Part shown: positions 148-47,549 of the stretch, in pieces
How the letters are laid out: the number at the start of each line of letters is the position of its first letter
Numbering within the stretch: the first letter of the stretch is position 1
Assembly (NCBI GenBank): GCA_041651235.1
Contig: JBAZJQ010000002.1
Coordinates: 3,434 to 67,433 of the forward strand
DNA from: Candidatus Pacearchaeota archaeon
GTDB taxonomy: Archaea > Nanobdellota > Nanobdellia > Pacearchaeales > GW2011-AR1
Direction of reading: 5' to 3'
DNA: 64,000 nt
Program-made: the position numbers and the translations under genes
The notes under the pieces: generated by a model
The model's input: the letters and a program-made list of their open reading frames with translations, nothing else
Databases searched by the model: none
What the model was told of the DNA's origin: nothing

Positions 148-693
148 ATGGCAACAACAAGAAAAGCATTAGCATATTCAAAAAAACAGCCAGTAGTGAA
201 TACTAGACATTCTAGAAAACAGCAGTTTAGTTACATTAAAGCTGTTCCTGTTCAAAAGATTGTAAAATTTAATATGGGAGATATACAAGCTTATCAAAGA
301 GGAGATTTTGGAATTAAGATGACATTAAGCACAGAAGAAAATATTCAAATTAGAGATTTAGCTTTAGAATCTGTTAGACAAACTTTATTAAAGGATATTT
401 CTGTTTTATTCCAGAAAAACTTTTTCTTTAGATGCAATGTTTTTCCGCATAATATTTTAAGAAATAACAGAGTTTTTTCAGGAGCAAGTAAGGGAGAGAG
501 AGTTCAGACAGGAATGACATTAAGTTTTGGAACTCCTGAAGGAAGAGCTGCAATTGTTAAAAGAGGAAACCCTATTTTTACTGTTTATTTTAATGGGGAG
601 AAAAATATCGCTTTTATGAGAAAATTCTTTAGAAAAGCTGCACCAAAATTACCCTGCAAATCAAAAGTTAGTGTAGAGATAATGAAGAAATAA
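148..693 (+). CDS. rpl10e: ribosomal protein uL16 (L10e)
   Basis: 181 aa with a basic N-terminus, ...VPVQKIVKFNMGD... and a C-terminal ...EGRAAIVKRG... pattern typical of archaeal/eukaryotic L10e. It directly follows eL33. Confidence 0.85.
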   Translation: MATTRKALAYSKKQPVVNTRHSRKQQFSYIKAVPVQKIVKFNMGDIQAYQRGDFGIKMTLSTEENIQIRDLALESVRQTLLKDISVLFQKNFFFRCNVFPHNILRNNRVFSGASKGERVQTGMTLSFGTPEGRAAIVKRGNPIFTVYFNGEKNIAFMRKFFRKAAPKLPCKSKVSVEIMKK

Positions 694-840
694 TTCTAAT
701 ATTGATTATTATTGATATATTTATAATTTCAACTTATATTTGTTCTATTGATTAAGCTTAATCTTCATCCTCCTTGTTGTTTGCTTTAAGAGATTATAGC
801 AAATAATCAAAAATAATTCTTGTTTTTGACTAACACAAAC

Positions 841-850
841 TTTAAATATA
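841..850 (+). promoter_or_regulatory. TATA-like box (TTTAAATATA) 30 nt upstream of the ppsA ATG
   Basis: The same TTTAWATA motif at about 29-30 nt from the ATG recurs before several first genes in this window. That spacing implies short or absent leaders. Confidence 0.45.
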
Positions 851-870
851 ATTGCTGATTTTTTATTTAG

Positions 871-3699
871 ATGATAGCAAAAAAAGAAGTTGATTTCAGG
901 GATAAATATATTAAATGGTTTTCTGAATTAAGTAATAAAAATGTTGATATTGCTGGAGGCAAGGGAGCTAGTTTAGGGGAGATGTTTAATAATAAATTTC
1001 CAGTTCCTCCAGGATTTGTAGTGACTGCGCAATCTTTTGCCTACTTTTTAGAACATCATGGATTAGCTGATAAAATTAATAATATCATTCTTGGAATTGA
1101 TATGGAAGATACTGCAGAGCTAGATGAAAAAGCAAAAGAAATTAGAGAATTAATTTTGAAAACAGATATGCCAAGTGATTTGAAAACTGAAATTATTGAA
1201 GCATATAATATTTTAGGAACAGAAAAAATAGAAGGCAAAGGTGTTTCTTCTGATGCATTAACTATTTTAAGAAATGCGCAAGAACCAATTTTTGTTTCTG
1301 TTAGAAGCTCTGCAACTACTGAAGATTCAGCTGATGCGAGTTTTGCTGGACAGCAAGATAGTTTCCTTAATATTAAGGGAGGACATCAAGTTGTTGAGCA
1401 TGTAAAAAAATGTTTTGCAAGTTTGTATACTGCAAGGTCAATTTATTATAGAAAACAAAAAGGAATTCAGGAAGGACAATCTTTGCTTGCAGTTGTTGTT
1501 CAAAAGATGATTGATTCTGAAAAGTCTGGGATTATATTCTCTAGAAATCCAATGACAATGGAAGATGATATTGTTATTGAAGCTGTTTATGGATTAGGAA
1601 CTGGAATTGTTTCTGGATTAATAAAACCGGATAATTATGTAGTATCAAGAGATTTGAAGATAAAAAGCATGACTATTGTAGATAAATTAGTTGCAATTGT
1701 TAGAACTGGTTCTGGTTCAAATGAAAAAGTTAAATTAAGTGCAGAAAGAAGCAAGAGCCAAGTTTTATCTCATTCTCAGATATTAGAAGCTGCAAATCAG
1801 GCAATAAAATTAGAAGAACATTATGGAAAACCACAAGATATCGAATTTGCAGTTGAAGAAGAAAAAATTTATATTGTTCAATCAAGGCCGATAACTACTT
1901 TAAAAACAAATGTTAAAAAAACAGGAGAATTATCTGGAAATATTTTATTAAATGGATTAGGTGCAAGTCCTGGAATTGGTGTTGGAATTGTAAAGATAAT
2001 AAAGGGCATGGAGGATTTATCTAAGATAAAGAAAGGAGATGTTCTTGTTACTGAAATGACTGATCCAGATATGGTTGTAAGTATGCAGAAATCAACTGCA
2101 ATTGTTACTGATGAGGGTGGAATGACTTCGCATGCAGCAATAGTAAGTCGTGAAATGGGAATTCCTGCTATTGTTGGAACTGGAAATGCAACTAGTGTAT
2201 TAAAAGATGGAATGAAAGTTACTGTTGATGGAACTCATGGAAAGGTTTACGAAGGACAAGTTGCAGAAACAAGTGTTATTGAAATAGAACCAATTGTTGA
2301 AACTCATAAGATTAAATTAAAGTTAATTGTAGACTTACCTGAATTTGCTGAAAGAGCTGCTAAATCTGGTATTGATTCGGTGGGGTTATTAAGATTAGAA
2401 GGGATTATTGCAAGCTCAAATAAACATCCTTTATTGTATGAGAAAGAAAATACATTAGAAGATTATACTGAATTATTAAGAAATGGAATTGAAAAGATTT
2501 CCAGGCCATTTAAGTCTGTTTGGATTAGAAGCTCTGATGTGAGAACTGATGAGTTCAGTGGATTAAAGGGAAGTCCTGAAAGAGAAATTAATCCTATGTT
2601 AGGATTGCATGGAATTAGATTTAGTTTGAAGCATCCTAAAATATTTGAAGCTGAATTAAATGCAATTAAAAAAGTTGCTGAAGAGCATCCTAACAAAAAC
2701 TTTGGGGTTATGTTTCCACAAGTAATTTCAATTGAAGAAGTATTAGAGTCTAAGAAAATATTTAATGCAATTGCAAGTGAAAATATGGATTTTGGGGTTA
2801 TGGTTGAAACTCCTGCAGCTGTTCAGGTTATTGAGGACCTTGCAAAAGAAGTTAGTTTTATTAGTTTTGGGACAAATGATTTAACTCAGTTTACCCTTGC
2901 GGTTGATAGGGGGGATGATAATGTTCAGCATTTATATAATGAAATGCATCCTGCTGTTATAGCTCAGATTGAAAAAGTAATTAAAGCCTGCAGAGGAAAA
3001 GTTCAGACAAGTATTTGCGGACAAGCAGGAAGCAATCCAGAAATGGTTGAAAAACTTTTTAGATTTGGAATAGATTCTATTTCAGTTAATGCTGATGCTG
3101 CTAAAAGTATTTCTGAGTTAATCAAGAGCATGGAAGATAAAGGAATTAAACATGGAGCAGAAGGTTCATTAGCTAAAGCTAATGAAAAAACACAAAAGAT
3201 GGAAGTAGAGATGGAGAAGAAAAAATGGGGATTTGATATAACTTGTGATGAATGTGGAAAAATAGACAATGTTCCATTTAAGCCTAAAAAAGGCTGGCCT
3301 GTTTATTGCAAGGAGTGTTATAAAAACAAGAGAAGTAAAAAAAATAATCCTGAATTGCCAACTTTACCTGTTGAATCTCCTAATATAAAACAATATGAAG
3401 AAGACAATAAAAAGATTCAGAAACAATTATTAAATGAAAATATAGGTGCTATTGAGCCCATAAATAATCATAAGAGAATTAATGATATCGCAAATAATAT
3501 TATACAAGAAGTAGAACAAAAAAATAAAAAAGAAGCTGAAAAAGACAAAGAAAAAGATGATGATATTCTTATGGAGCCTGGAGATGATTTTAATTTAAGA
3601 GATAGTCTAGGAGTTTATAATCCTGATGAAGAAACAGGCAAAAGCCAGTATGATTATAGTTTTGAAGATGGGGAAGATGAGTATAGTGATGTGTTTTAG
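871..3699 (+). CDS. ppsA: phosphoenolpyruvate synthase (pyruvate, water dikinase) with a roughly 190-aa C-terminal extension
   Basis: N-terminal PEP/pyruvate-binding ATP-grasp region. Phosphohistidine swivel motif TDEGGMTSHAAIVSREMGIPAIVG. PEP-utilising TIM-barrel motifs SFGTNDLTQFTLAVDR and ICGQAG. The extra tail carries a CxxC...CxxC motif and K/E/D-rich low complexity. Confidence 0.85.
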   Translation: MIAKKEVDFRDKYIKWFSELSNKNVDIAGGKGASLGEMFNNKFPVPPGFVVTAQSFAYFLEHHGLADKINNIILGIDMEDTAELDEKAKEIRELILKTDMPSDLKTEIIEAYNILGTEKIEGKGVSSDALTILRNAQEPIFVSVRSSATTEDSADASFAGQQDSFLNIKGGHQVVEHVKKCFASLYTARSIYYRKQKGIQEGQSLLAVVVQKMIDSEKSGIIFSRNPMTMEDDIVIEAVYGLGTGIVSGLIKPDNYVVSRDLKIKSMTIVDKLVAIVRTGSGSNEKVKLSAERSKSQVLSHSQILEAANQAIKLEEHYGKPQDIEFAVEEEKIYIVQSRPITTLKTNVKKTGELSGNILLNGLGASPGIGVGIVKIIKGMEDLSKIKKGDVLVTEMTDPDMVVSMQKSTAIVTDEGGMTSHAAIVSREMGIPAIVGTGNATSVLKDGMKVTVDGTHGKVYEGQVAETSVIEIEPIVETHKIKLKLIVDLPEFAERAAKSGIDSVGLLRLEGIIASSNKHPLLYEKENTLEDYTELLRNGIEKISRPFKSVWIRSSDVRTDEFSGLKGSPEREINPMLGLHGIRFSLKHPKIFEAELNAIKKVAEEHPNKNFGVMFPQVISIEEVLESKKIFNAIASENMDFGVMVETPAAVQVIEDLAKEVSFISFGTNDLTQFTLAVDRGDDNVQHLYNEMHPAVIAQIEKVIKACRGKVQTSICGQAGSNPEMVEKLFRFGIDSISVNADAAKSISELIKSMEDKGIKHGAEGSLAKANEKTQKMEVEMEKKKWGFDITCDECGKIDNVPFKPKKGWPVYCKECYKNKRSKKNNPELPTLPVESPNIKQYEEDNKKIQKQLLNENIGAIEPINNHKRINDIANNIIQEVEQKNKKEAEKDKEKDDDILMEPGDDFNLRDSLGVYNPDEETGKSQYDYSFEDGEDEYSDVF

Positions 3700-14346: not shown

Positions 14347-14685
14347 ATGGAAACATTAGTAGAAACATTAAGAGACGAATTAACAGTAGAACAATGGAGT
14401 GAAGTAAATAGAAGAATGCATACTCCAGAGTATAGAACCCAAGTTAATTTTGTGGATTTAGATAATTATAATTATTCAGAAGTTCTTAATCAATGTATTC
14501 AGGATGTTTTAGCTGAAACAGCTGGAAAATGCAGATGGAGAAATGTAGCAAACAATGATACTGAAAAATGGCTTGATTCACAGCCTAATATTACATTAGC
14601 TCAGAATTCTTATTGCAATATTTGCTCGGGAAGTTATGAAAATGCTAAACAGATAAATTGCAAAAATTATGTGGAGAAAAAATAA
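14347..14685 (+). CDS. hypothetical protein (C-terminal Cys cluster)
   Basis: 112 aa, packed 1 nt after the RHH ORF. It contains ...CNICSGSYENAKQINC... Confidence 0.5.
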   Translation: METLVETLRDELTVEQWSEVNRRMHTPEYRTQVNFVDLDNYNYSEVLNQCIQDVLAETAGKCRWRNVANNDTEKWLDSQPNITLAQNSYCNICSGSYENAKQINCKNYVEKK

Positions 14686-14686
14686 A

Positions 14687-14914
14687 ATGAGAATACAAAC
14701 CCAAATACCTATATGTTACAATAAAGAAATAGCAAATGTAGATTTAATTGCATTGCAAAATGGAAAGTTTCTTTTATGGAATGATTCTCAAGAAAAGAAA
14801 GATGCGCATCCTAATTGGAGATATGTTATGTATAAATTAAATTCTGTTTGCCAGAAATGCCCCGGATATGATAATAAGTGTCCTTCATATATTACAAATG
14901 GAGAGTTAAAATGA
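14687..14914 (+). CDS. hypothetical small Cys-containing protein
   Basis: The ATG at 14687 lies 1 nt after the previous stop. MRIQTQIPICYNK...CQKCPGYDNKCPSY. Its stop overlaps the SLT ATG (ATGA). Confidence 0.5.
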   Translation: MRIQTQIPICYNKEIANVDLIALQNGKFLLWNDSQEKKDAHPNWRYVMYKLNSVCQKCPGYDNKCPSYITNGELK

Positions 14915-39787: not shown

Positions 39788-39843
39788 ACATTTTTAAACT
39801 AAATTCTTTTAGTGATTTTATCAGTTTTAATTAACTGAGCTAT

Positions 39844-39917
39844 GGGGCCATAGCTCAGCCCGGTTAGAGCACCTGCCTTTTAAGCAGGGTGTCGGGGGTT
39901 CAAATCCCCCTGGCCCT
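39844..39917 (+). tRNA. tRNA-Lys (anticodon UUU)
   Basis: Manual cloverleaf: acceptor GGGGCCA/UGGCCCU (G1-U72), D stem GCUC/GAGC, anticodon stem CCUGC/GCAGG with loop CUUUUAA, T stem GGGGG/CCCCC with loop UUCAAAU. Length 74 nt. CCA is not encoded and there is no intron. Confidence 0.85.
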
Positions 39918-39950
39918 ATTTTAAAATTAGAATTATTTATCTAAAAAAGT

Positions 39951-40134: not shown

Positions 40135-40344
40135 ATGCACATATTAGAGCCCACACACACAAAATTGAAACCTGAAGAGGTTAAGAGATTACTTGATGAG
40201 CTAAATATTTCTCTTGCACAATTACCCAAAATTAAAATTATTGACGCTGCATTACCTAAAGATGCAGAAATTTCTGATGTTTATAAAATTGAAAGAGCTG
40301 TTAATGGGAAGAAAACAATTTATTATAGGGTGGTGTCAGTATGA
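40135..40344 (+). CDS. rpoH: RNA polymerase subunit H (Rpo5)
   Basis: 69 aa. HILEPTHTKLKPEEVKRLLDELNISLAQLPKIKIIDAALP...YRVV is the RpoH/Rpb5 C-domain pattern. It overlaps the rpoB start. Confidence 0.85.
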   Translation: MHILEPTHTKLKPEEVKRLLDELNISLAQLPKIKIIDAALPKDAEISDVYKIERAVNGKKTIYYRVVSV

Positions 40345-43300
40345 GGCTAGAAAATTCTAAAGAGGAACATGTGCTTGTAAAAAAATATCTTAAAGACCAT
40401 AGTCTAGTTGAATCGAATATTACTTCTTTTAATAATTTTATAAAATTCAGAATGCAGGAAATTGTAAATGAAATCAGTGAGTCAATTCCTAAAGAAGACA
40501 CAGAAATCACCCTTGGAAAAATTAAGGTCGGAAAACCAGAGATTACTGAAGCTGATGGTAGCACAAATTTATTAACTCCTACTGAAGCAAGAATAAGAGG
40601 TTTAACTTATTCTGCACCGGTTTTCTTAGAAATAACAATAAAACAAGAAGGACAATTAGAAAGTCATGATGTTGAAATAGGAAGAATCCCTATTTTAATA
40701 AAAAGTGAAATTTGCAATCTTAATGGATTATCCAGAGAAGAATTAATAAAAGAATATGTTGATCCTTTGGATTTTGGGGGATATTTTATTATTAATGGAA
40801 ATGAAAGAGTGATGGTTATGACAGAAGATCTTGCAGAAAATCAGGCATTTATTGAAAATTCAAAAAATAAAATAATGCTTAGATTGTTTTCAAAAAGAGG
40901 AAGCTACAGAATTCCCATTTCAATAACAGAAACACCTGAAGGAATTGTAGAAGTTTCTTTTTCAAGATTTAAAAATATTCCAGTTATTATTATTTTGAAA
41001 GCATTAGGGTTAACAAAAGAAAGTGAGATTGCAGAACATATTGGAAAAGAAAATGATAGCTTAATTGTTAATTTATATGAATACACTGCTATCCAAAATC
41101 AGGAAGAAGCTATGATGGCTATTGCTGAACAAACTTCTTTACAAGGAACAAAAAAAGAAATTTTAGACAGAATAAAACAAAGACTTGATTCCTATTTCTT
41201 ACCTCACATTGGATTAAAAAAAGAAGACAGATTAAAAAAAGCAATTACTTTATGTAAATTTGTAAAACAGTTTTATATTGCAAAAGAAACTCCGGATAGT
41301 TTAACAGATAAAGATCATTATGCTAACAAAAGAGTTAGAATGTCTGGGGATTTACTATCTGATTTATTTAGAGTAAATCTTAATATCCTAGTAAGAGATA
41401 TACAGCACTCATTACAGAAAATTCAAAAGAGGAAAAAATTCTATTCTATAAAATCAATTGCGAAATCAACATTATTTACTCACAGAGTTGAAAGTGCAAT
41501 TGCAACTGGTAACTGGATTGGAGAAAGAACAGGAGTTACTCAGAATATGGATAAAACAAATTATCTTAAAATCTTATCACAATTACAAAGAGTTTCAAGT
41601 ATGCTTCCTGGAGAACAAGAAAATTTCTTAGCAAGAACATTGCATCCAACACACTATGGAAGATTTTGTCCTGTTGAAACTCCTGAAGGAACTGAAATTG
41701 GTTTAAGAAAAAATTTAGCATTATTAGCAAAAATTTCTACAAGAACTGATTTAGATGATGAAAGTTTAATCAAAATTCTAGTTAATCTTGGAATGAAAAG
41801 AGAGATTATTAAAGAAGTTGGTAAAGATGTTTTCTTCAATGGAAAATTTATTGGACATGTTGAAAATTATAGCAAATTAATAGGAGATTTAAAGAAAATG
41901 AGAAGAGATGCGCAATTGCCAATTGAATTAAGTATCAGATACGATAAAGTTTTAGGAATTGTTCTTTTGTCAACAGAAGAAGGAAGAGTAATGAGACCTT
42001 TGATTATTATTGAAAATGGAAAATCAAAATTAACAGAAGAACATCTTCAATTAGTAAGAGAAAATTCTTTAGCTTGGCAGGATTTATTGAAAGGCGGAAT
42101 TATTGAATATTTAGATGCTGCTGAAGAAGAAAATTCATTAGTTGCATTAAATCCTGAAGAGATTACCGAAGAACATACTCACCTTGAAATTGATAAAATT
42201 GATTTGTTTGGAGTTGTTACTTCAATTGTTCCTTATGCAAATTATGACCAGAGTTCAAGATTAATCAGGGGAAGCAAAACTCAAACTCAGTCATTAGGAC
42301 TATATGCTGCTAATTTCTTTACAAGAATAGATACTAATGTCTCTATACTGCACTATCCACAAAAACCAATTGTTAGAAGTTTTGTTTATGATACTTTAGA
42401 TATTCATCCAGCAGGACAAAATGTAGTTGTTGCTGTTATGACTCATGACGGATATAATATGGAAGATGCTTTAATATTAAATCAAGGTTCTTTAGATAGA
42501 GGATTAGGAAGAAGTACTTATTTTAGGCCCTATGGTTCTACTGAACTAAATTATGCTGGGGGATTAAAAGATCAGATTACAATACCTGAAAAAGATGTTT
42601 CAGGATACAGAACAGAGGATAGTTACAGATTCTTAGAAGATGATGGTATTACTTATCCTGAAGCTCAATTAACCTCTGGGGAAGCTGTTATTGGAAAAAC
42701 TAGTCCTCCTAAATTCTTGTCAGAAGTAAGAGAAATTTCAATTAAAGCAAGAAAAGAAGCAAGCTCGGTAATAAGACAAGAAGAACAAGGAACAGTTGAT
42801 AGCGTATTTATTACAGAAGATAATCAAGGAAATAAAATTATCCAAGTTAAAACAAGAGATTTAAGAGTCCCTGAACTGGGAGATAAATTTGCAACTGCAC
42901 ACGGACAGAAGGGAGTTATTGGTGCAATTATTCCTGAAAATGATGTTCCATTTACATCAAGAGGAGTTAAACCAGATGTTATATTTAATCCTCACTCAAT
43001 TCCTGGAAGAATGACTGTTGGCTTCTTAATTGAATTACTTGCTGGAAAAGTTGGAAGCTTATCTGGAAAAATTATGGATGGTACTGGATTCTCTGGACAA
43101 AAAGTAGAAAGTCTAGAAGAAGAATTAAAGAGTTTAGGATTTAGAGAAGATGGAAAAGAAACAATCTATCATGGAGTTAGTGGTAAGATGATGAGAGTTA
43201 AGATTTATGTTGGAAGTATGTATTATTTGAAACTTGGAAGAATGGTAAAGAACTTATTGCATGCAAGAGCATCTGGAAAAGTTACATTATTAACAAGACA

Positions 43301-43610
43301 ACCAATTGAAGGAAGATCAAAGGGAGGGGCATTGAGATTAGGAGAAATGGAACAACAGGCATTAGTTGCTCATGGAGCATCATTATTATTAAAAGAAAGA
43401 TATGATTCAGATAAAGTTATTATTAATATTTGCAGTAAATGTGGTGGAGTTGCAATTGAAGACACAATAAGAGGAAAAATGTTTTGCCCTCTTTGCAATA
43501 GCCAGGAAATTGAACCAATTGAATTATCTTATGCATTTAAATTATTAGCAGATGAAATTCAATCTATGCATATTAAAACTAAATTTAATTTGAAGAATAA
43601 GTACGAATAA
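40341..43610 (+). CDS. rpoB: RNA polymerase subunit B (unsplit)
   Basis: 1089 aa. Conserved blocks include GYFIINGNERV, RFCPVETPEG, GYNMEDA, KFATAHGQKG, LGEMEQQA and the C-terminal Zn ribbon CSKCGG...CPLC. Confidence 0.95.
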   Translation: MRLENSKEEHVLVKKYLKDHSLVESNITSFNNFIKFRMQEIVNEISESIPKEDTEITLGKIKVGKPEITEADGSTNLLTPTEARIRGLTYSAPVFLEITIKQEGQLESHDVEIGRIPILIKSEICNLNGLSREELIKEYVDPLDFGGYFIINGNERVMVMTEDLAENQAFIENSKNKIMLRLFSKRGSYRIPISITETPEGIVEVSFSRFKNIPVIIILKALGLTKESEIAEHIGKENDSLIVNLYEYTAIQNQEEAMMAIAEQTSLQGTKKEILDRIKQRLDSYFLPHIGLKKEDRLKKAITLCKFVKQFYIAKETPDSLTDKDHYANKRVRMSGDLLSDLFRVNLNILVRDIQHSLQKIQKRKKFYSIKSIAKSTLFTHRVESAIATGNWIGERTGVTQNMDKTNYLKILSQLQRVSSMLPGEQENFLARTLHPTHYGRFCPVETPEGTEIGLRKNLALLAKISTRTDLDDESLIKILVNLGMKREIIKEVGKDVFFNGKFIGHVENYSKLIGDLKKMRRDAQLPIELSIRYDKVLGIVLLSTEEGRVMRPLIIIENGKSKLTEEHLQLVRENSLAWQDLLKGGIIEYLDAAEEENSLVALNPEEITEEHTHLEIDKIDLFGVVTSIVPYANYDQSSRLIRGSKTQTQSLGLYAANFFTRIDTNVSILHYPQKPIVRSFVYDTLDIHPAGQNVVVAVMTHDGYNMEDALILNQGSLDRGLGRSTYFRPYGSTELNYAGGLKDQITIPEKDVSGYRTEDSYRFLEDDGITYPEAQLTSGEAVIGKTSPPKFLSEVREISIKARKEASSVIRQEEQGTVDSVFITEDNQGNKIIQVKTRDLRVPELGDKFATAHGQKGVIGAIIPENDVPFTSRGVKPDVIFNPHSIPGRMTVGFLIELLAGKVGSLSGKIMDGTGFSGQKVESLEEELKSLGFREDGKETIYHGVSGKMMRVKIYVGSMYYLKLGRMVKNLLHARASGKVTLLTRQPIEGRSKGGALRLGEMEQQALVAHGASLLLKERYDSDKVIINICSKCGGVAIEDTIRGKMFCPLCNSQEIEPIELSYAFKLLADEIQSMHIKTKFNLKNKYE

Positions 43611-43611
43611 A

Positions 43612-43776
43612 ATGGAAAATCAATGTCAATATCACCCTTGTATGAAATTAAAAGTATTAGCTCAATTAGGTATTGAAAAACCTGTAGAATGCCAACAATC
43701 ACATCAACAATGTGAAGAATATTGTAGAATAGAAACTTCACCAAGACAACCTATATTGGAAAGGGGAATTAATTAA
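43612..43776 (+). CDS. 54-aa Cys-rich ORF between rpoB and rpoA, below the ORF-track cutoff
   Basis: MENQCQYHPCMKLKVLAQLGIEKPVECQQSHQQCEEYCRIETSPRQPILERGIN (6 Cys). The ATG is 1 nt after the rpoB stop, and its own stop is 1 nt before the next ATG. Confidence 0.5.
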   Translation: MENQCQYHPCMKLKVLAQLGIEKPVECQQSHQQCEEYCRIETSPRQPILERGIN

Positions 43777-43777
43777 A

Positions 43778-44023
43778 ATGATACAACAAAATCAAACACA
43801 AACACAAACAACAGAGGCACGATGTCCCTATTTAGGATGTAAAACTTGGCAGAGATTATTTGATAGAGATGCTGAAGAAGCAAATAATCAGAAAGATAAA
43901 CGATGCACAACTCCATTACATAAAAGCTGTTCAACATACAGACAATTAGAAGAACAAAAAAGTTCAGATATAAAAAATTATGTTTATCAAACATATCCTC
44001 AATTAAATGGAGCATCTCAATAA
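43778..44023 (+). CDS. 81-aa ORF between rpoB and rpoA
   Basis: MIQQNQTQTQTTEARCPYLGCKTWQRLF...KRCTTPLHKSCSTY... (4 Cys). Its stop is 1 nt before the rpoA ATG at 44025. Confidence 0.5.
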   Translation: MIQQNQTQTQTTEARCPYLGCKTWQRLFDRDAEEANNQKDKRCTTPLHKSCSTYRQLEEQKSSDIKNYVYQTYPQLNGASQ

Positions 44024-44024
44024 A

Positions 44025-47000
44025 ATGGCAATTAAACCAATAAAAAAACAAGTTGAAAGTTTGCAATTTACTTTATTTAGTCCAGATGAGATTAAAAAAG
44101 TCAGCAAAGCAAAAATAATAACTCCTGAATTATATGATGTAGATGGTTATCCTGTTGATGGAGGATTAATGGATTTAAGATTAGGAGCAATTGATCCTGG
44201 AGTTAGATGCAGAACTTGTGGTGGAAGATTAAAAGAATGTTTAGGACACCCAGGAAGCATTGATTTAGCAAGACCTGTTCTCCATATAAAATATATTGCA
44301 GTAGTTGAATTATTTTTGAGAAGCTATTGTTCTGAATGCCATAGATTAATGATTAAAGATAAAGATATGGAAAAATACAAAACAGCTTCTGCTAGATTAA
44401 AAAGAGCAAGAGATGCAAAAAAATGTCCTCATTGTCAAGCAGAACAAGAAAGAGTTAAATTAGAAAAACCAAGTACATTCAGAATAGGTAAAAGGAGAAT
44501 TTTCCCTGGAGAAATAAGAGATAGATTAGTAAGAATTTCGGATGAAGAAGCTAAATTAGCTGGGATTAATCCAAAAATATTCAGACCTGAATGGTCTATT
44601 TTAACATTATTATTAGTTCCTCCTGTAACAGTAAGACCTTCAATTACTTTAGAATCAGGTGAAAGAAGTGAAGATGATTTAACTCATAAATTATCAGATA
44701 TTATAAGAGCTAATCAAAGACTTTGGGAAAATTTGAATGCTGGAGCTCCAGAAGTTATTATTGAAGATTTATGGGATTTATTACAGTATCATATTACAAC
44801 ATTTTTTGATAATTCTATTTCAAAAATTCCTCCTGCAAGACATAGAAGCGGACAGCCATTAAAAACAATAACAGAAAGAATTAAAGGTAAAGAAGGAAGA
44901 ATAAGGCATAACCTTGCTGGAAAAAGAGTTAATTTCTCTTCGAGAACAGTTGTAAGCCCAGATCCTTCATTAAAGATTAATGAAATAGGAGTTCCAATAG
45001 AAGTTGCAGAAGTTTTAACTGTTAATGAAAAAGTTAATTCAACTAATATTGAAAAACTAAAAGAAATAATTAGAAAAAAAGAATACCCTGCTGCAAATTA
45101 TGTAATAAGGCCTGATGGAAGAAGAAAAAGAATTACAGAAGAATTAAAAGAAGAAATTTTAGCAGAATTACAACCAGGTTATGTTGTTGAAAGACAATTA
45201 ATTGATGGAGATGTCGTATTATTCAATAGACACCCTTCTCTTCACAGAGCAAGTTTAATGGCTCATTTTGTAAAAGTTCTTCCTTATAGAACATTTAGAA
45301 TGCACCCAGGTGCTGCACACCCTTATAATGCAGATTATGATGGAGATGAAATGAATATTCATGTCCCACAAACAGAAGAAGCAAGAGCAGAAGCAAAAAC
45401 TTTACTAGATGTTAATCAAAATTTATTCTCACCAAAAGATAACAGCAACTTACTAGGATGTAATGTGGATGCAGTTACTGGAGGATATTTACTAAGCAAA
45501 GGCGATTTAACTAATCAAGATACTGCTCAATTATTATATCAATCAGGAATTGATGTAAGATTAGCTGGAAAAAATATTAAAGGTAATGACATTATTTCAG
45601 AAATAATTCCTAAAGTAGATTACAAAGGGAAAACAAAGACAGGAGAAAATTTTATTATTGAAAATGGAAAAATTAAAGAAGGGGTTGTTGATGAAAATGT
45701 GTTTGGTGTTGAAGCAGGAGAATTTATGAAGACTCTTGATAAAGAATTTGGAAGAACTAAAACAATTGAAGTTCTTGAAAATGTTTTTAGATTAGGAACA
45801 AAATATCTTTCAAATCATGGATTTACAATTGCTGTTAATGATTTAGGTGTTAATGAAAGAGTTAAGAAAGCTACAGAAGATATTGTTATTGAAGCTGAAA
45901 ATGAAACTAAAAGACTAATTGAAGAATGGAAATTAGGAAAAATTGAGACAATTCCGGGTAAAAGTCCTGAAGAAACAAGGGAAATTAAAATTATGCAGAT
46001 ATTAAACAATACAAGAACTCAGGTAGGTAAGGTAATTAAAAAAGAATTCCCTCAATCAAATCCTATTAGTATTATGATGAATGCTGGTGCTGGAGGAAAT
46101 GTTCTTAATATCAGCCAGATGGCTTGTTTTGTTGGACAACAATCATTATGGGCAAAGAGAATTGGAATTGGATTCAGCAATAGAACTCTTAGCTTGTTTA
46201 AAGAGGGAGATTTAAGCCCTAAAGCAAAAGGATTTATCTATAATTCATTCTTAAAAGGATTACAACCATATGAATTCTTTTTTGGAGCAATGACAGGAAG
46301 AGATGCTCTGATGGATACTGCACTGAGAACTCCTAAATCTGGTTATTTATACAGAAGATTAGCAAATGCATTACAAGATATAAGAATAGAGTATGATAAA
46401 ACAGTAAGAGATGGTGCAGGAAGTATTATTCAGTTTAAATATGGTGATGATGGAAAAGATGTTTCTGTATTACACAAAGACAAAGAGATTGCTCCTGGAG
46501 AAGCAATTGGGATTATTACTGCTCAATCATTTGGGGAGCCTTCAACACAGATGGCGTTAAGTACATTCCATGCAGCAGGAGTTGCAGAAATGCAGGTTAC
46601 TCAAGGATTACCAAGATTAATTGAGATATTTGATGCTAGAAGAACTCCTTCAACTCCTGAAATGGAAATTTATCTTGATAAAGAACATAATAATGAAAAA
46701 GATGCAAAGATTATTGCTGAAAAAATACAAGAAGTTAAATTAATTGACATAACAAAAGAGATAAAAATTAATTTCAGTGAAAAGAGAATTGAAGCTGTTA
46801 TTGATACTAATGCTGTTAAGAGAGTTCATTCTTCAATTGAAAGCATTGCAGAAAAATTAAAAGAAAAAGTTAAAGGGAAAATAAAAGCAAGCGGCAATTC
46901 AATTATATTTGGAGATAAAGAGTTAAATTTCAAAGAGTTATATAAATTAAAAGAAAAAATAAAAGATAGTATAATTTCTGGAATAAAAGGAATTGAACAA

Positions 47001-47549
47001 ATTCTAGTTGTTAATAGAGACAAAGATTATGTAATTTTAACTGCTGGAACTAATCTTAAAGAGATAATTGAGTTCAAAGGAATCGATAAAACTAGAACAG
47101 TAAGCAATGATATCCACGAAGTTTGTGATATTTTTGGAGTAGAGGTTGCCCGTGCAGTTATTATTAAAGAAATTGAAAAGGTTAAAAATTCTCAGGGACT
47201 AGAAATCAATGAGAGACATCTGAAATTAATTGCTGATGCAATGACCTCTGAAGGGGTTGTTAAGGGTATAACGAGAATGGGAATTATCTCGCAGAAATCA
47301 TCTATACTTGCAAGAGCAAGTTTTGAAACTCCAATAAAACAATTTATCAATGCTACATTAAAAGATAATAAAGATGAATTAAATTCAGTTATTGAAAATA
47401 TAATTTTGAATCAGCCAGTTCCTGTTGGTACTGGACTTCCTGGCTTATTAGTTGAAGTTACTGGTCCTTTATCAGACAAGAAACAAAAATCAATTAAAGC
47501 TGTTGAGAGTTTAACCAAGAAAACAAAAGAAACAACAGGAAAAAAGTAA
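44025..47549 (+). CDS. rpoA: RNA polymerase subunit A, fused A'+A'' in one ORF
   Basis: All of the following lie in a single frame: Zn motif CRTCGGRLKECLGHPG, catalytic NADYDGDEMN, bridge helix GRDALMDTALRTPKSGYLYRRLANALQD, and trigger-loop block AQSFGEPSTQMALSTFHAAGV followed by GLPRLIEIFDAR. An alternative start at 44007 would overlap the upstream ORF. Confidence 0.9.
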   Translation: MAIKPIKKQVESLQFTLFSPDEIKKVSKAKIITPELYDVDGYPVDGGLMDLRLGAIDPGVRCRTCGGRLKECLGHPGSIDLARPVLHIKYIAVVELFLRSYCSECHRLMIKDKDMEKYKTASARLKRARDAKKCPHCQAEQERVKLEKPSTFRIGKRRIFPGEIRDRLVRISDEEAKLAGINPKIFRPEWSILTLLLVPPVTVRPSITLESGERSEDDLTHKLSDIIRANQRLWENLNAGAPEVIIEDLWDLLQYHITTFFDNSISKIPPARHRSGQPLKTITERIKGKEGRIRHNLAGKRVNFSSRTVVSPDPSLKINEIGVPIEVAEVLTVNEKVNSTNIEKLKEIIRKKEYPAANYVIRPDGRRKRITEELKEEILAELQPGYVVERQLIDGDVVLFNRHPSLHRASLMAHFVKVLPYRTFRMHPGAAHPYNADYDGDEMNIHVPQTEEARAEAKTLLDVNQNLFSPKDNSNLLGCNVDAVTGGYLLSKGDLTNQDTAQLLYQSGIDVRLAGKNIKGNDIISEIIPKVDYKGKTKTGENFIIENGKIKEGVVDENVFGVEAGEFMKTLDKEFGRTKTIEVLENVFRLGTKYLSNHGFTIAVNDLGVNERVKKATEDIVIEAENETKRLIEEWKLGKIETIPGKSPEETREIKIMQILNNTRTQVGKVIKKEFPQSNPISIMMNAGAGGNVLNISQMACFVGQQSLWAKRIGIGFSNRTLSLFKEGDLSPKAKGFIYNSFLKGLQPYEFFFGAMTGRDALMDTALRTPKSGYLYRRLANALQDIRIEYDKTVRDGAGSIIQFKYGDDGKDVSVLHKDKEIAPGEAIGIITAQSFGEPSTQMALSTFHAAGVAEMQVTQGLPRLIEIFDARRTPSTPEMEIYLDKEHNNEKDAKIIAEKIQEVKLIDITKEIKINFSEKRIEAVIDTNAVKRVHSSIESIAEKLKEKVKGKIKASGNSIIFGDKELNFKELYKLKEKIKDSIISGIKGIEQILVVNRDKDYVILTAGTNLKEIIEFKGIDKTRTVSNDIHEVCDIFGVEVARAVIIKEIEKVKNSQGLEINERHLKLIADAMTSEGVVKGITRMGIISQKSSILARASFETPIKQFINATLKDNKDELNSVIENIILNQPVPVGTGLPGLLVEVTGPLSDKKQKSIKAVESLTKKTKETTGKK

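Follow-up and report, generated by a model that had tools for sequence, protein, structure and literature searches.

The genes for the catalytic subunits of RNA polymerase (RNAP) are among the most conserved and most syntenic genes of archaea. In a Candidatus Pacearchaeota archaeon (GenBank assembly GCA_041651235.1), a 64,000-nucleotide stretch of contig JBAZJQ010000002.1 (positions 3,434 to 67,433, forward strand), referred to here in its full length as the window, carries rpoB and rpoA separated by a 414-nt gap, which is occupied by two small, cysteine-containing open reading frames (ORFs), termed ORF-a and ORF-b. The rpoB-rpoA junction is a hypervariable cassette slot in Pacearchaeota, and the two ORFs are considered here as occupants of it.

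The two reading frames and their homologue

The window comes from a metagenome assembly (ENA ERZ27247363, contig k141_458516) and reads RNR, thioredoxin, ThyX, tRNA-Lys, rpoH, rpoB, ORF-a, ORF-b and an unsplit rpoA (Table 1). The two ORFs are annotated in the deposited metagenome-assembled genome as hypothetical proteins WC438_04420 and WC438_04425 and fall in no database family. rpoH overlaps the start of rpoB by 4 nt, and both the C-terminal zinc ribbon of RpoB (CSKCGG...CPLCNS) and the N-terminal clamp zinc motifs of RpoA are intact. The coordinates and translations given in an initial annotation of the window for the end of rpoB, the two ORFs and the rpoA ATG were reproduced from the sequence, and the three junctions, described there as a stop codon, one nucleotide and an ATG, all read TAA-A-ATG. 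The same +1 junction recurs at two more gene pairs of the window (31389/31391 and 49383/49385), as had been stated of this coupling architecture. The six cysteines ascribed to ORF-a are in fact five (C5, C10, C27, C34 and C38). An automatic gene call places the start of rpoA at an upstream in-frame ATG (44007). The ATG at 44025 is preferred because alignments of relatives to RpoA begin at residues 1-6 of that start and because it agrees with the commonest junction of the clade, stop+1 nt+ATG.

Since the GC content of the window is only 29% (29.2%, with 30.4% in the gap), frequent stop codons are expected, yet the two ORFs occupy 411 of the 414 nt. None of 5000 dinucleotide-preserving shuffles of the gap contained two same-strand ATG-initiated ORFs spanning 411 nt, and an ORF of at least 246 nt, the length of ORF-b, arose in 0.5% of them. 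Codon-usage log-odds, trained on the 40 longest ORFs of the window, are 0.357 for ORF-a, 0.368 for ORF-b and 0.41 for rpoH, against 0.53 +/- 0.17 for real chunks read in frame and -0.43 +/- 0.29 for those read off frame. The values of ORF-a and ORF-b are matched by no off-frame chunk of a real gene, and neither ORF scores above 0 in any of its other five frames. Cysteine accounts for 5 of 54 residues in ORF-a and 4 of 81 in ORF-b, compared with 0.92% in the long ORFs of the window (binomial P = 1.4e-4 and 6.7e-3, respectively), and glutamine is raised in both relative to the proteome. An Rfam scan of the gap gave no RNA family match; a scan for promoters and terminators used bacterial models on an archaeal host and was hence uninformative. 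Packing against the shuffles, in-frame codon usage, cysteine enrichment and the Rfam result together make it very probable that both ORFs are real protein-coding genes. The same-strand, co-translated packing proposed for the core RNAP operon, rpoH-rpoB-x-y-rpoA, is borne out by the packing and codon-usage tests.

ORF-a has the core CQYHPC-x16-CQQSHQQC-EEY-C, and ORF-b, with cysteines at positions 16, 21, 43 and 51, has the core CPYLGC-x21-CTTPLHKSC-STY, which follows a low-complexity, Gln/Thr-rich N-terminus encoded by a CAA/ACA-rich stretch. Pfam and NCBIfam scans of both proteins gave nothing at E <= 10, no PDB family was matched, and there was no similarity to known small RNAP subunits, in keeping with the earlier remark that neither resembles RpoN, RpoP or other small subunits. 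Word-seeded searches of 5.8 billion proteins with both ORFs returned self matches only. With ORF-b as the query, exhaustive phmmer against 1.84 billion representatives identified a single true relative, P0011 (75 aa, E = 1.8e-4); in pairwise comparison, the two share 46% identity over 48 aa (E = 5e-13). Both retain four cysteines at matching positions, W24, the TT-LH motif and CST[YF], and both fit a subfamily pattern, C-x-Y-x-G-(x)-C-x-T-W-x-x-L ... C-T-T-x-L-H-x-x-C-S-T-[YF], directly 5' of rpoA.

P0011 is found in two loci, L163, on a second, likewise Pacearchaeota contig of the same metagenome, and L164, from a JGI metagenome. In both, it adjoins rpoA through a stop+1 nt+ATG junction and is preceded by another four-cysteine ORF of 70-73 aa (CELVKTC...CSDEFKRCNIY), which itself follows rpoB. 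Because the RpoB C-terminus and RpoA N-terminus of the L163-type genome are only 85-86% identical to those of the window, the layout of two cysteine ORFs between rpoB and rpoA is common to two clearly different species. The ratio of nonsynonymous to synonymous substitution (dN/dS) between the ORF-b core and P0011 is 0.33 over 44 codons, with dS near saturation, compared with 0.16 for rpoB and 0.12 for rpoA between the window and L163. The dN of the ORF-b core is 0.34, against 0.09-0.10 in the flanks (about 3.5-fold). These substitution patterns indicate purifying selection on a fast-evolving protein. The initial annotation had looked to relatives for conservation of frame or sequence, and it is there, in the retained two-ORF layout of L163/L164 and in the ORF-b core.

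ORF-a can be aligned to P0011 by the Smith-Waterman method over nearly its full length (MEN..C.YH.C...; score 59, z 6.5, shuffle p <= 3.5e-4), although what it shares with the ORF-b/P0011 subfamily is just CxYH.C and a weak full-length similarity. Given this weak but significant resemblance to P0011, ORF-a and ORF-b are probably old, highly diverged tandem paralogues.

Table 1. Features of the window, followed by features of related loci in the coordinates of each locus
Feature	Position	Strand	Description
ORF, 112 aa	14347-14685	+	ends C-x2-C-x(8-11)-C..Y
ORF, 81 aa	14669-14914	+	ends C-x2-C-x(8-11)-C..Y
tRNA-Lys(TTT)	39843-39919	+	directly 5' of the rpoH-rpoB operon
rpoH, 69 aa	40135-40344	+	first gene of the operon; Pfam RNA_pol_Rpb5_C; ORF list
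rpoB, 1089 aa, unsplit	40341-43610	+	Pfam RNA_pol_Rpb2_1 to _7; translation; stop TAA at 43608-43610
Junction 1, TAAAATG	43608-43614	+	rpoB stop, 1 nt, ORF-a ATG
ORF-a, 54 aa, 5 Cys	43612-43776	+	translation, codon usage, Cys enrichment
ORF-a core codons	43624-43725	+
SD-like AGGGGA	43762-43767	+	11-16 nt 5' of the ORF-b ATG; inside the last codons of ORF-a (..ERGIN*)
Junction 2, TAAAATG	43774-43780	+	ORF-a stop, 1 nt, ORF-b ATG
ORF-b, 81 aa, 4 Cys	43778-44023	+	translation, homologue P0011, codon usage
CAA/ACA-rich stretch	43784-43813	+	source of the ORF-b N-terminus
ORF-b core codons	43823-43939	+
SD-like GGAG	44009-44012	+	13-16 nt 5' of the rpoA ATG; inside the last codons of ORF-b (..NGASQ*)
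Junction 3, TAAAATG	44021-44027	+	ORF-b stop, 1 nt, rpoA ATG
rpoA, unsplit A'+A'', 1174 aa from 44025	44025-47549	+	translation; Pfam RNA_pol_Rpb1_1 to _5
RpoA His106 codon	44340-44342	+	directly after the second clamp Zn knuckle (CSEC-H)
ORF, 136 aa	47620-48030	-	no Pfam match
ORF, 80 aa	49141-49383	+	no Pfam match; between rps12 (ends 49174) and rps7 (ATG 49385)
L161 restriction-modification pair	1506-2991		N6_N4 DNA methylase (266 aa), BsaWI-family endonuclease (227 aa)
L016 insert	468-2945		2.5 kb; CsrA-like ORF, repeat-containing HTH protein
P0005 cassette, L144	2656-2958		Cys ORF
P0006 cassette, L165	3501-3806		Cys ORF
Membrane-protein family, L008	2450-2734
Membrane-protein family, L017	2387-2674
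Membrane-protein family, L087	2736-2999
Membrane-protein family, L107	2450-2704
Membrane-protein family, L112	282-593
Membrane-protein family, L130	2762-3004

The single rpoA, with A' and A'' fused, apparently has the same arrangement in all related loci checked. Downstream of it in the window, the 136-aa ORF on the opposite strand breaks the usual continuation of the operon from rpoA to the NusA-like gene and rps12.

Contents, turnover and translation of the rpoB-rpoA slot

Scanning genomes and metagenomes for the RpoA N-terminus recovered 160 loci that carry the label Pacearchaeota, Woesearchaeota or Nanoarchaeota and whose RpoA identity is 71-92%. Among them, a search for near-orthologues suitable for dN/dS found none above about 92% RpoA identity and none with ORF-a or ORF-b. 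Counts of slot contents refer to the 146 non-redundant loci that carry both rpoB and rpoA, with about 7 kb sampled per locus. Direct adjacency of rpoB and rpoA, here called the empty state, is the commonest single state (65 of 146), such that the insert is as unexpected as the initial annotation had supposed. In the remaining 81 loci, co-oriented ORFs lie tightly packed over 60 to 2500 nt, and about 34 of the 146 have a gap ORF of at most 140 aa with at least four cysteines.

BLAST clustering of 120 gap ORFs yielded an 18-member cysteine family, a 3-member cysteine family of CxxC type, the ORF-b/P0011 pair, a 6-member family of membrane proteins of about 90 aa, a few small groups and 73 singletons, and proteins with signal peptides are also among the cargo. 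The slot of L161 contains a complete type II restriction-modification pair, its two genes co-oriented and joined by stop+1 nt+ATG. One ORF of the L016 insert is CsrA-like (Pfam CsrA, E = 5e-12), an unusual find in archaea. The membrane proteins, of 80-103 aa, are 40-56% identical to one another, share the motif F/W-G-x-SP-S/T-D-L and have no Pfam match; in three loci (L008, L107 and L112) the membrane-protein ORF lies just 5' of a cysteine ORF.

Some of the nearest relatives of the window are empty (L004, L007, L009 and L013) and some have other cargo; the closest sampled relatives, with RpoA 84-89% identical, often have no insert. The synteny of the window is therefore kept only in part, in that the layout of two cysteine ORFs persists in L163/L164 but many relatives are empty or filled with other cargo. 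The suggestion that the ORFs encode lineage-specific RNAP subunits does not hold in the sense of lineage-wide conservation, as relatives are often empty and the slot is hypervariable, with almost no phylogenetic signal. ORF-a and ORF-b are shown to be dispensable accessories, with rates of evolution several times those of the polymerase genes on either side.

Turnover was followed on a neighbour-joining tree of 250 residues of the RpoA N-terminus, which is poorly resolved. Fitch parsimony requires at least 27 changes of the cysteine-ORF state, with 34 positive tips, compared with a mean of 30.8 when labels are shuffled, and the presence of a cysteine ORF carries almost no phylogenetic signal. 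The cassettes P0005 and P0006, in L144 and L165, differ by a dS of 0.19, with a dN/dS of 0.64, while the rpoB and rpoA that flank them differ by a dS of 1.0-1.1. Because the cassette is far younger than its flanks, it was horizontally exchanged between diverged genomes; the comparison, the one cassette pair in which exchange is so far seen, indicates fast protein evolution together with recent exchange. The window gap has no sign of recent acquisition, by GC content or by the dS of the ORF-b core against L163, which is not reduced. The 3' end of rpoB and the 5' end of rpoA are about 90% identical in DNA between the window and L163. Cassettes may enter by homologous recombination through these very conserved ends and may be lost without a scar through microhomology between the repeated TAAAATG junctions. 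In short, the slot is shown to gain, lose and exchange cassettes often.

The junctions suggest how such cargo might be translated. Stop+1 nt+ATG joins rpoB and rpoA in 29 of 58 empty loci, the commonest junction of the clade, and the commonest exact sequence there, GAATAAAATG (16/58), is also that of junction 1 of the window. A Shine-Dalgarno (SD)-like motif, defined as GGAG, GAGG or GGTG at -20 to -5 of rpoA, is present in 39 of 75 loci where rpoA follows a gap ORF, but in 0 of 58 where it directly follows rpoB (background 8.7%). The rpoA of empty loci probably starts by termination-reinitiation. The SD-like motifs of gap loci sit in the Gly-rich last codons of ORFs that are otherwise unrelated. 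In the window, ORF-a probably starts by termination-reinitiation off the rpoB stop, given that this stop is 1 nt away and that no SD-like motif lies 5' of ORF-a. The AGGGGA at the end of ORF-a would serve ORF-b, and the GGAG at the end of ORF-b, which is common to the window and L163, would serve rpoA. Both ORFs lie within the rpoH-rpoB-rpoA operon and share its transcription. By sequence, each cassette re-creates the TAAAATG junction and brings a ribosome-binding motif for the next gene; the embedded signals may drive translation of the cassette and maintain that of rpoA.

Elsewhere in the window, an orphan 80-aa ORF between rps12 and rps7 overlaps rps12 by 34 nt and is joined to rps7 by a stop+1 nt+ATG junction. 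Conserved operons of this genome may therefore take up small ORFs at their junctions as a general matter, which is relevant to how polymerase-specific the rpoB-rpoA inserts are.

The four-cysteine class

The 18-member cysteine family, defined here through an alignment (A1) and named family A, has four invariant cysteines and the consensus W-x-x-I-C-P-x-A-x-x-G-C-x-G-A-[RK]-D-P-x-x-F-x-x-x-C-x(6,7)-C-x-x-Y. When the window and about 1.1 Mb of loci were searched with a family A hidden Markov model (HMM), every significant match fell in the rpoB-rpoA gap. Whatever other cargo is present, no more than 28 nt separate the end of the cysteine ORF from the start of rpoA in 28 of 30 scorable loci. ORF-b has the same placement, on the same strand, as the last ORF before rpoA and with its end 1 nt from it. 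Tandem pairs of cysteine ORFs also occur in L104, L110, L123, L088 and L163.

A looser pattern, C.{4,7}C.{8,22}C.{6,8}C..[YF], the limits of which were chosen post hoc to take in ORF-a and ORF-b, fits both of them, and is met with in 12 of 113 gap ORFs and 0 of 2969 other ORFs; the same post hoc pattern arises in 0.15% of shuffled sequences of ORF-a and 0.04% of those of ORF-b. The linkers between the second and third cysteines, of 16 residues in ORF-a and 21 in ORF-b, are longer than the 12-13 or so typical of family A, and the helix motif of family A, A-[RK]-D-P-x-x-F-x-x-x-C, is missing from both. Searches with jackhmmer started from either ORF did not reach family A. ORF-a and ORF-b are accordingly filed as a separate subfamily within the same positional and structural class rather than as demonstrated members of family A, and they likely belong to that recurrent four-cysteine class.

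A family A profile search of 5.8 billion proteins gave five proteins only, none with a name or domain; Pfam scans of 20 family members and a comparison of the profile with PDB sequences (E >= 0.84) returned noise. No fusion of a cysteine domain to rpoB was seen in the surveyed loci, and tblastn against phage genomes gave no credible match. Two adjacent small ORFs of the window (14347-14914) may be another tandem pair of small cysteine proteins, unrelated in sequence to ORF-a and ORF-b.

An AlphaFold2 model of a family A member (pLDDT 63 overall, 70-79 in the core) has a helical core, with cysteines at helix ends, and ORF-a and ORF-b may likewise be small, mostly helical proteins. Their four cysteines, spaced C-x4-C ... 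C-x6/7-C-xx-Y, would hold one metal centre, either zinc or iron-sulfur (Fe-S). A single such site is the most economical explanation for four invariant, spaced cysteines in a cytoplasmic protein of 50-100 residues, and on this ground it is somewhat favoured that ORF-a and ORF-b bind a metal. The zinc binding first suggested for the pair accords with the four-cysteine core kept in P0011, which is probably metal-binding, while the metal itself is still a prediction. Neither ORF has a CxxC knuckle, and the spacings of the class, C-x4-7-C and C-x6-8-C, differ from those of zinc ribbons, RpoN, RpoP, Spt4, WhiB-like proteins and C(P)XCG micro-proteins.

Possible roles as polymerase factor or passenger

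The reading preferred here, with a probability of roughly 0.45, is that ORF-a and ORF-b are real genes, tandem diverged paralogues of the four-cysteine type, in the Pacearchaeota rpoB/rpoA cassette slot, and that their putatively metal-binding products would most likely be optional factors at the RNAP clamp. Several results weigh against it. Class membership of the two ORFs is suggested by cysteine spacing, position and one shuffle-based score; the family A HMM matches neither ORF at E < 10, hhalign of the ORFs against family A gives P of 0.16 and 0.18, and BLASTP of ORF-a finds neither ORF-b nor P0011. For ORF-b, AlphaFold2 gave a low-confidence model (pLDDT 51), which was set aside; confidence in the family model is moderate, Foldseek against PDB and BFVD gave 0 fold matches, and metal binding is predicted. 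The link to RNAP is positional, 45% of relatives have no insert, and the slot is permissive for unrelated cargo, including the restriction-modification pair, CsrA, membrane and signal-peptide proteins and the 73 singletons. No RpoA or RpoB residue covaries convincingly with the presence of a cysteine ORF. The best candidate is RpoA His106, with a cysteine ORF in 12 of 19 His106 loci and 18 of 110 others (p = 5.6e-5, uncorrected for 571 tests and for phylogeny), a signal that is probably phylogenetic in origin.

The RpoB C-terminus and the RpoA N-terminus together form the clamp of RNAP. Given that the four-cysteine class appears tied to the slot, adjacent to rpoA and flanked by the segments that code for the clamp, a role at the clamp can be proposed, in which the proteins would be optional factors that act on it or assemble with it. 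That ORF-a and ORF-b act on RNAP is a tentative proposal based on gene position, with the odds somewhat against it. The fuller version, in which optional, fast-evolving metal-binding mini-proteins would dock on the clamp, modulate transcription or protect the polymerase, and be traded as translation-coupled cassettes, is unlikely. If it were true, ORF-a and ORF-b would be a duplicated modulator pair, and the trading of cassettes would fit an arms race, for instance against viral or host-derived RNAP inhibitors.

The strongest alternative, a credible one if held with less than even confidence, is that the genes are real but their proteins are unrelated to RNAP. The junction would then be a recombination or insertion hotspot in a constitutively expressed operon, with two of the genome's most conserved sequences on its sides, where small genes of any function lodge, hitch-hike on its expression and pass between lineages. 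The very diverse contents of the slot fit such a hotspot, with 73 of 120 gap ORFs singletons, the 6-member membrane family, the methylase and BsaWI-type endonuclease of L161 and the CsrA and HTH protein of L016, as do the 65 empty loci, the near-random distribution on the RpoA tree, the recent exchange of one cassette (dS 0.19 against about 1.0 in the flanks) and the orphan ORF between rps12 and rps7. Random cargo would not, however, be expected to be so ordered or so exclusive: the four-cysteine class is the commonest occupant, is found nowhere else in the approximately 1.1 Mb sampled (about 7 kb per locus), and keeps its place as the last ORF before rpoA.

It is improbable that the ORFs are translated but that the peptides themselves are unimportant, as young proto-genes or translated spacers that set the flow of ribosomes into rpoA, by stop-start reinitiation together with an embedded SD, and tune the ratio of RpoB to RpoA. 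Such a role would account for TAAAATG at every junction and for the Gly-rich ends of unrelated gap ORFs that spell GGAG or GAGG 8-16 nt before the ATG (39/75 against 0/58), and orphans do make up most gap ORFs; a run of Gln and Thr that recalls a microsatellite opens ORF-b, and glutamine is abundant in both ORFs. Yet the four cysteines and other residues are kept between ORF-b and P0011 while the rest has diverged, four cysteines are invariant throughout the 18-member family, and cysteine is far above its proteome level. Cysteine conservation, cysteine enrichment and the dN/dS of 0.33 point to selection on a folded product.

A non-coding spacer with frames open by chance would explain why the word-seeded search and the domain scans came back without homologues, but it is very improbable in view of the packing at 29% GC, the codon usage that is coding-like in-frame only, the absence of an Rfam match and a P0011 homologue in the same frame and position. 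Least credible is the idea that an ankyrin-repeat protein degenerated and left ORF-b as a fragment. Residues 26-55 (LFDRDAEEANNQKDKRCTTPLHKSC) do recall a two-repeat junction, LL..GA..N..D..G.TPLH.A, but the four ankyrin-repeat proteins met in the exhaustive search (E down to 1.2e-9) are spurious hits whose scores sum one match of about 16-30 residues over 3-5 repeats, each stretch is worth just about 4.6 bits against designed ankyrins, a Pfam scan at E <= 10 brought up no Ank model for ORF-b, P0011 resembles ankyrin less (TTELH), and less than one repeat is present, too little to fold as ankyrin.

Rpo13 offers a precedent for an optional add-on to archaeal RNAP. This small, lineage-specific subunit of Crenarchaeota, of about 80-100 aa, is mostly helical, has no eukaryotic orthologue, lies near the clamp head and RpoH, is conserved in its lineage and has been physically seen in RNAP crystals (Korkhin et al. 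2009, PMC2675907; Wojtas et al. 2012, PMC3479171). ORF-a and ORF-b resemble it in being small, mostly helical by prediction and found in one archaeal lineage, but share no sequence similarity with it in Pfam and PDB comparisons. Rpo13 lacks a cysteine motif, and its gene does not lie in the rpoB-rpoA interval, whereas the slot proteins are patchy, hypervariable, cysteine-based and known here from genes alone. With RpoP/Rpo12, RpoN/Rpo10, Spt4, TFS and Elf1, the two ORFs share a length below 110 aa and four cysteines, which are metal ligands in those transcription proteins. The latter are universally conserved and have CxxC zinc knuckles (zinc ribbons, or CX2C...CC in RpoN), unlike ORF-a and ORF-b, which have C-x4-C and C-x6/7-C, no CxxC and no Pfam or NCBIfam match.

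Archaeal micro-proteins of C(P)XCG type, such as HVO_2753 and others of Haloferax volcanii and Brz of Halobacterium, have fewer than 80 aa and two cysteine pairs, are often orphan or narrowly distributed and are often regulatory. They are scattered over the genome, unlike ORF-a and ORF-b, which are without C(P)XCG knuckles and lie in a fixed operon slot. Like variable islets and integration hotspots, the slot has conserved flanks, presence or absence among close relatives, unrelated cargo and one cassette younger than its flanks. Unlike islets in general, it lies inside an essential RNAP operon, between two catalytic-subunit genes, and its cargo is co-oriented, coupled by stop+1 nt+ATG and equipped with embedded SD motifs, with no integrase, tRNA or repeat boundaries.

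Precedents exist for small four-cysteine micro-proteins, for lineage-specific RNAP add-ons such as Rpo13 and for variable islets flanked by conserved genes, and no description of these ORFs, of family A or of an rpoB-rpoA hotspot was found in the literature. The novelty lies in their combination, in a slot between catalytic-subunit genes that is coupled in translation, exchanged horizontally and dominated by an undescribed four-cysteine class. It is unexpected that a hypervariable slot for exchanged cassettes should lie exactly between these genes and be built into their translational coupling, and it means that, in streamlined DPANN genomes, not even the core transcription operon is closed to gene gain. 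Should the four-cysteine mini-proteins bind polymerase, they would represent a new kind of RNAP accessory factor, dispensable and lineage-specific, from a group that to our knowledge has no cultured representatives. If they do not, the slot would offer a clean natural system for the study of how orphan micro-genes originate, sustain their translation (embedded SD, stop+1 nt+ATG) and spread by recombination through conserved flanks.

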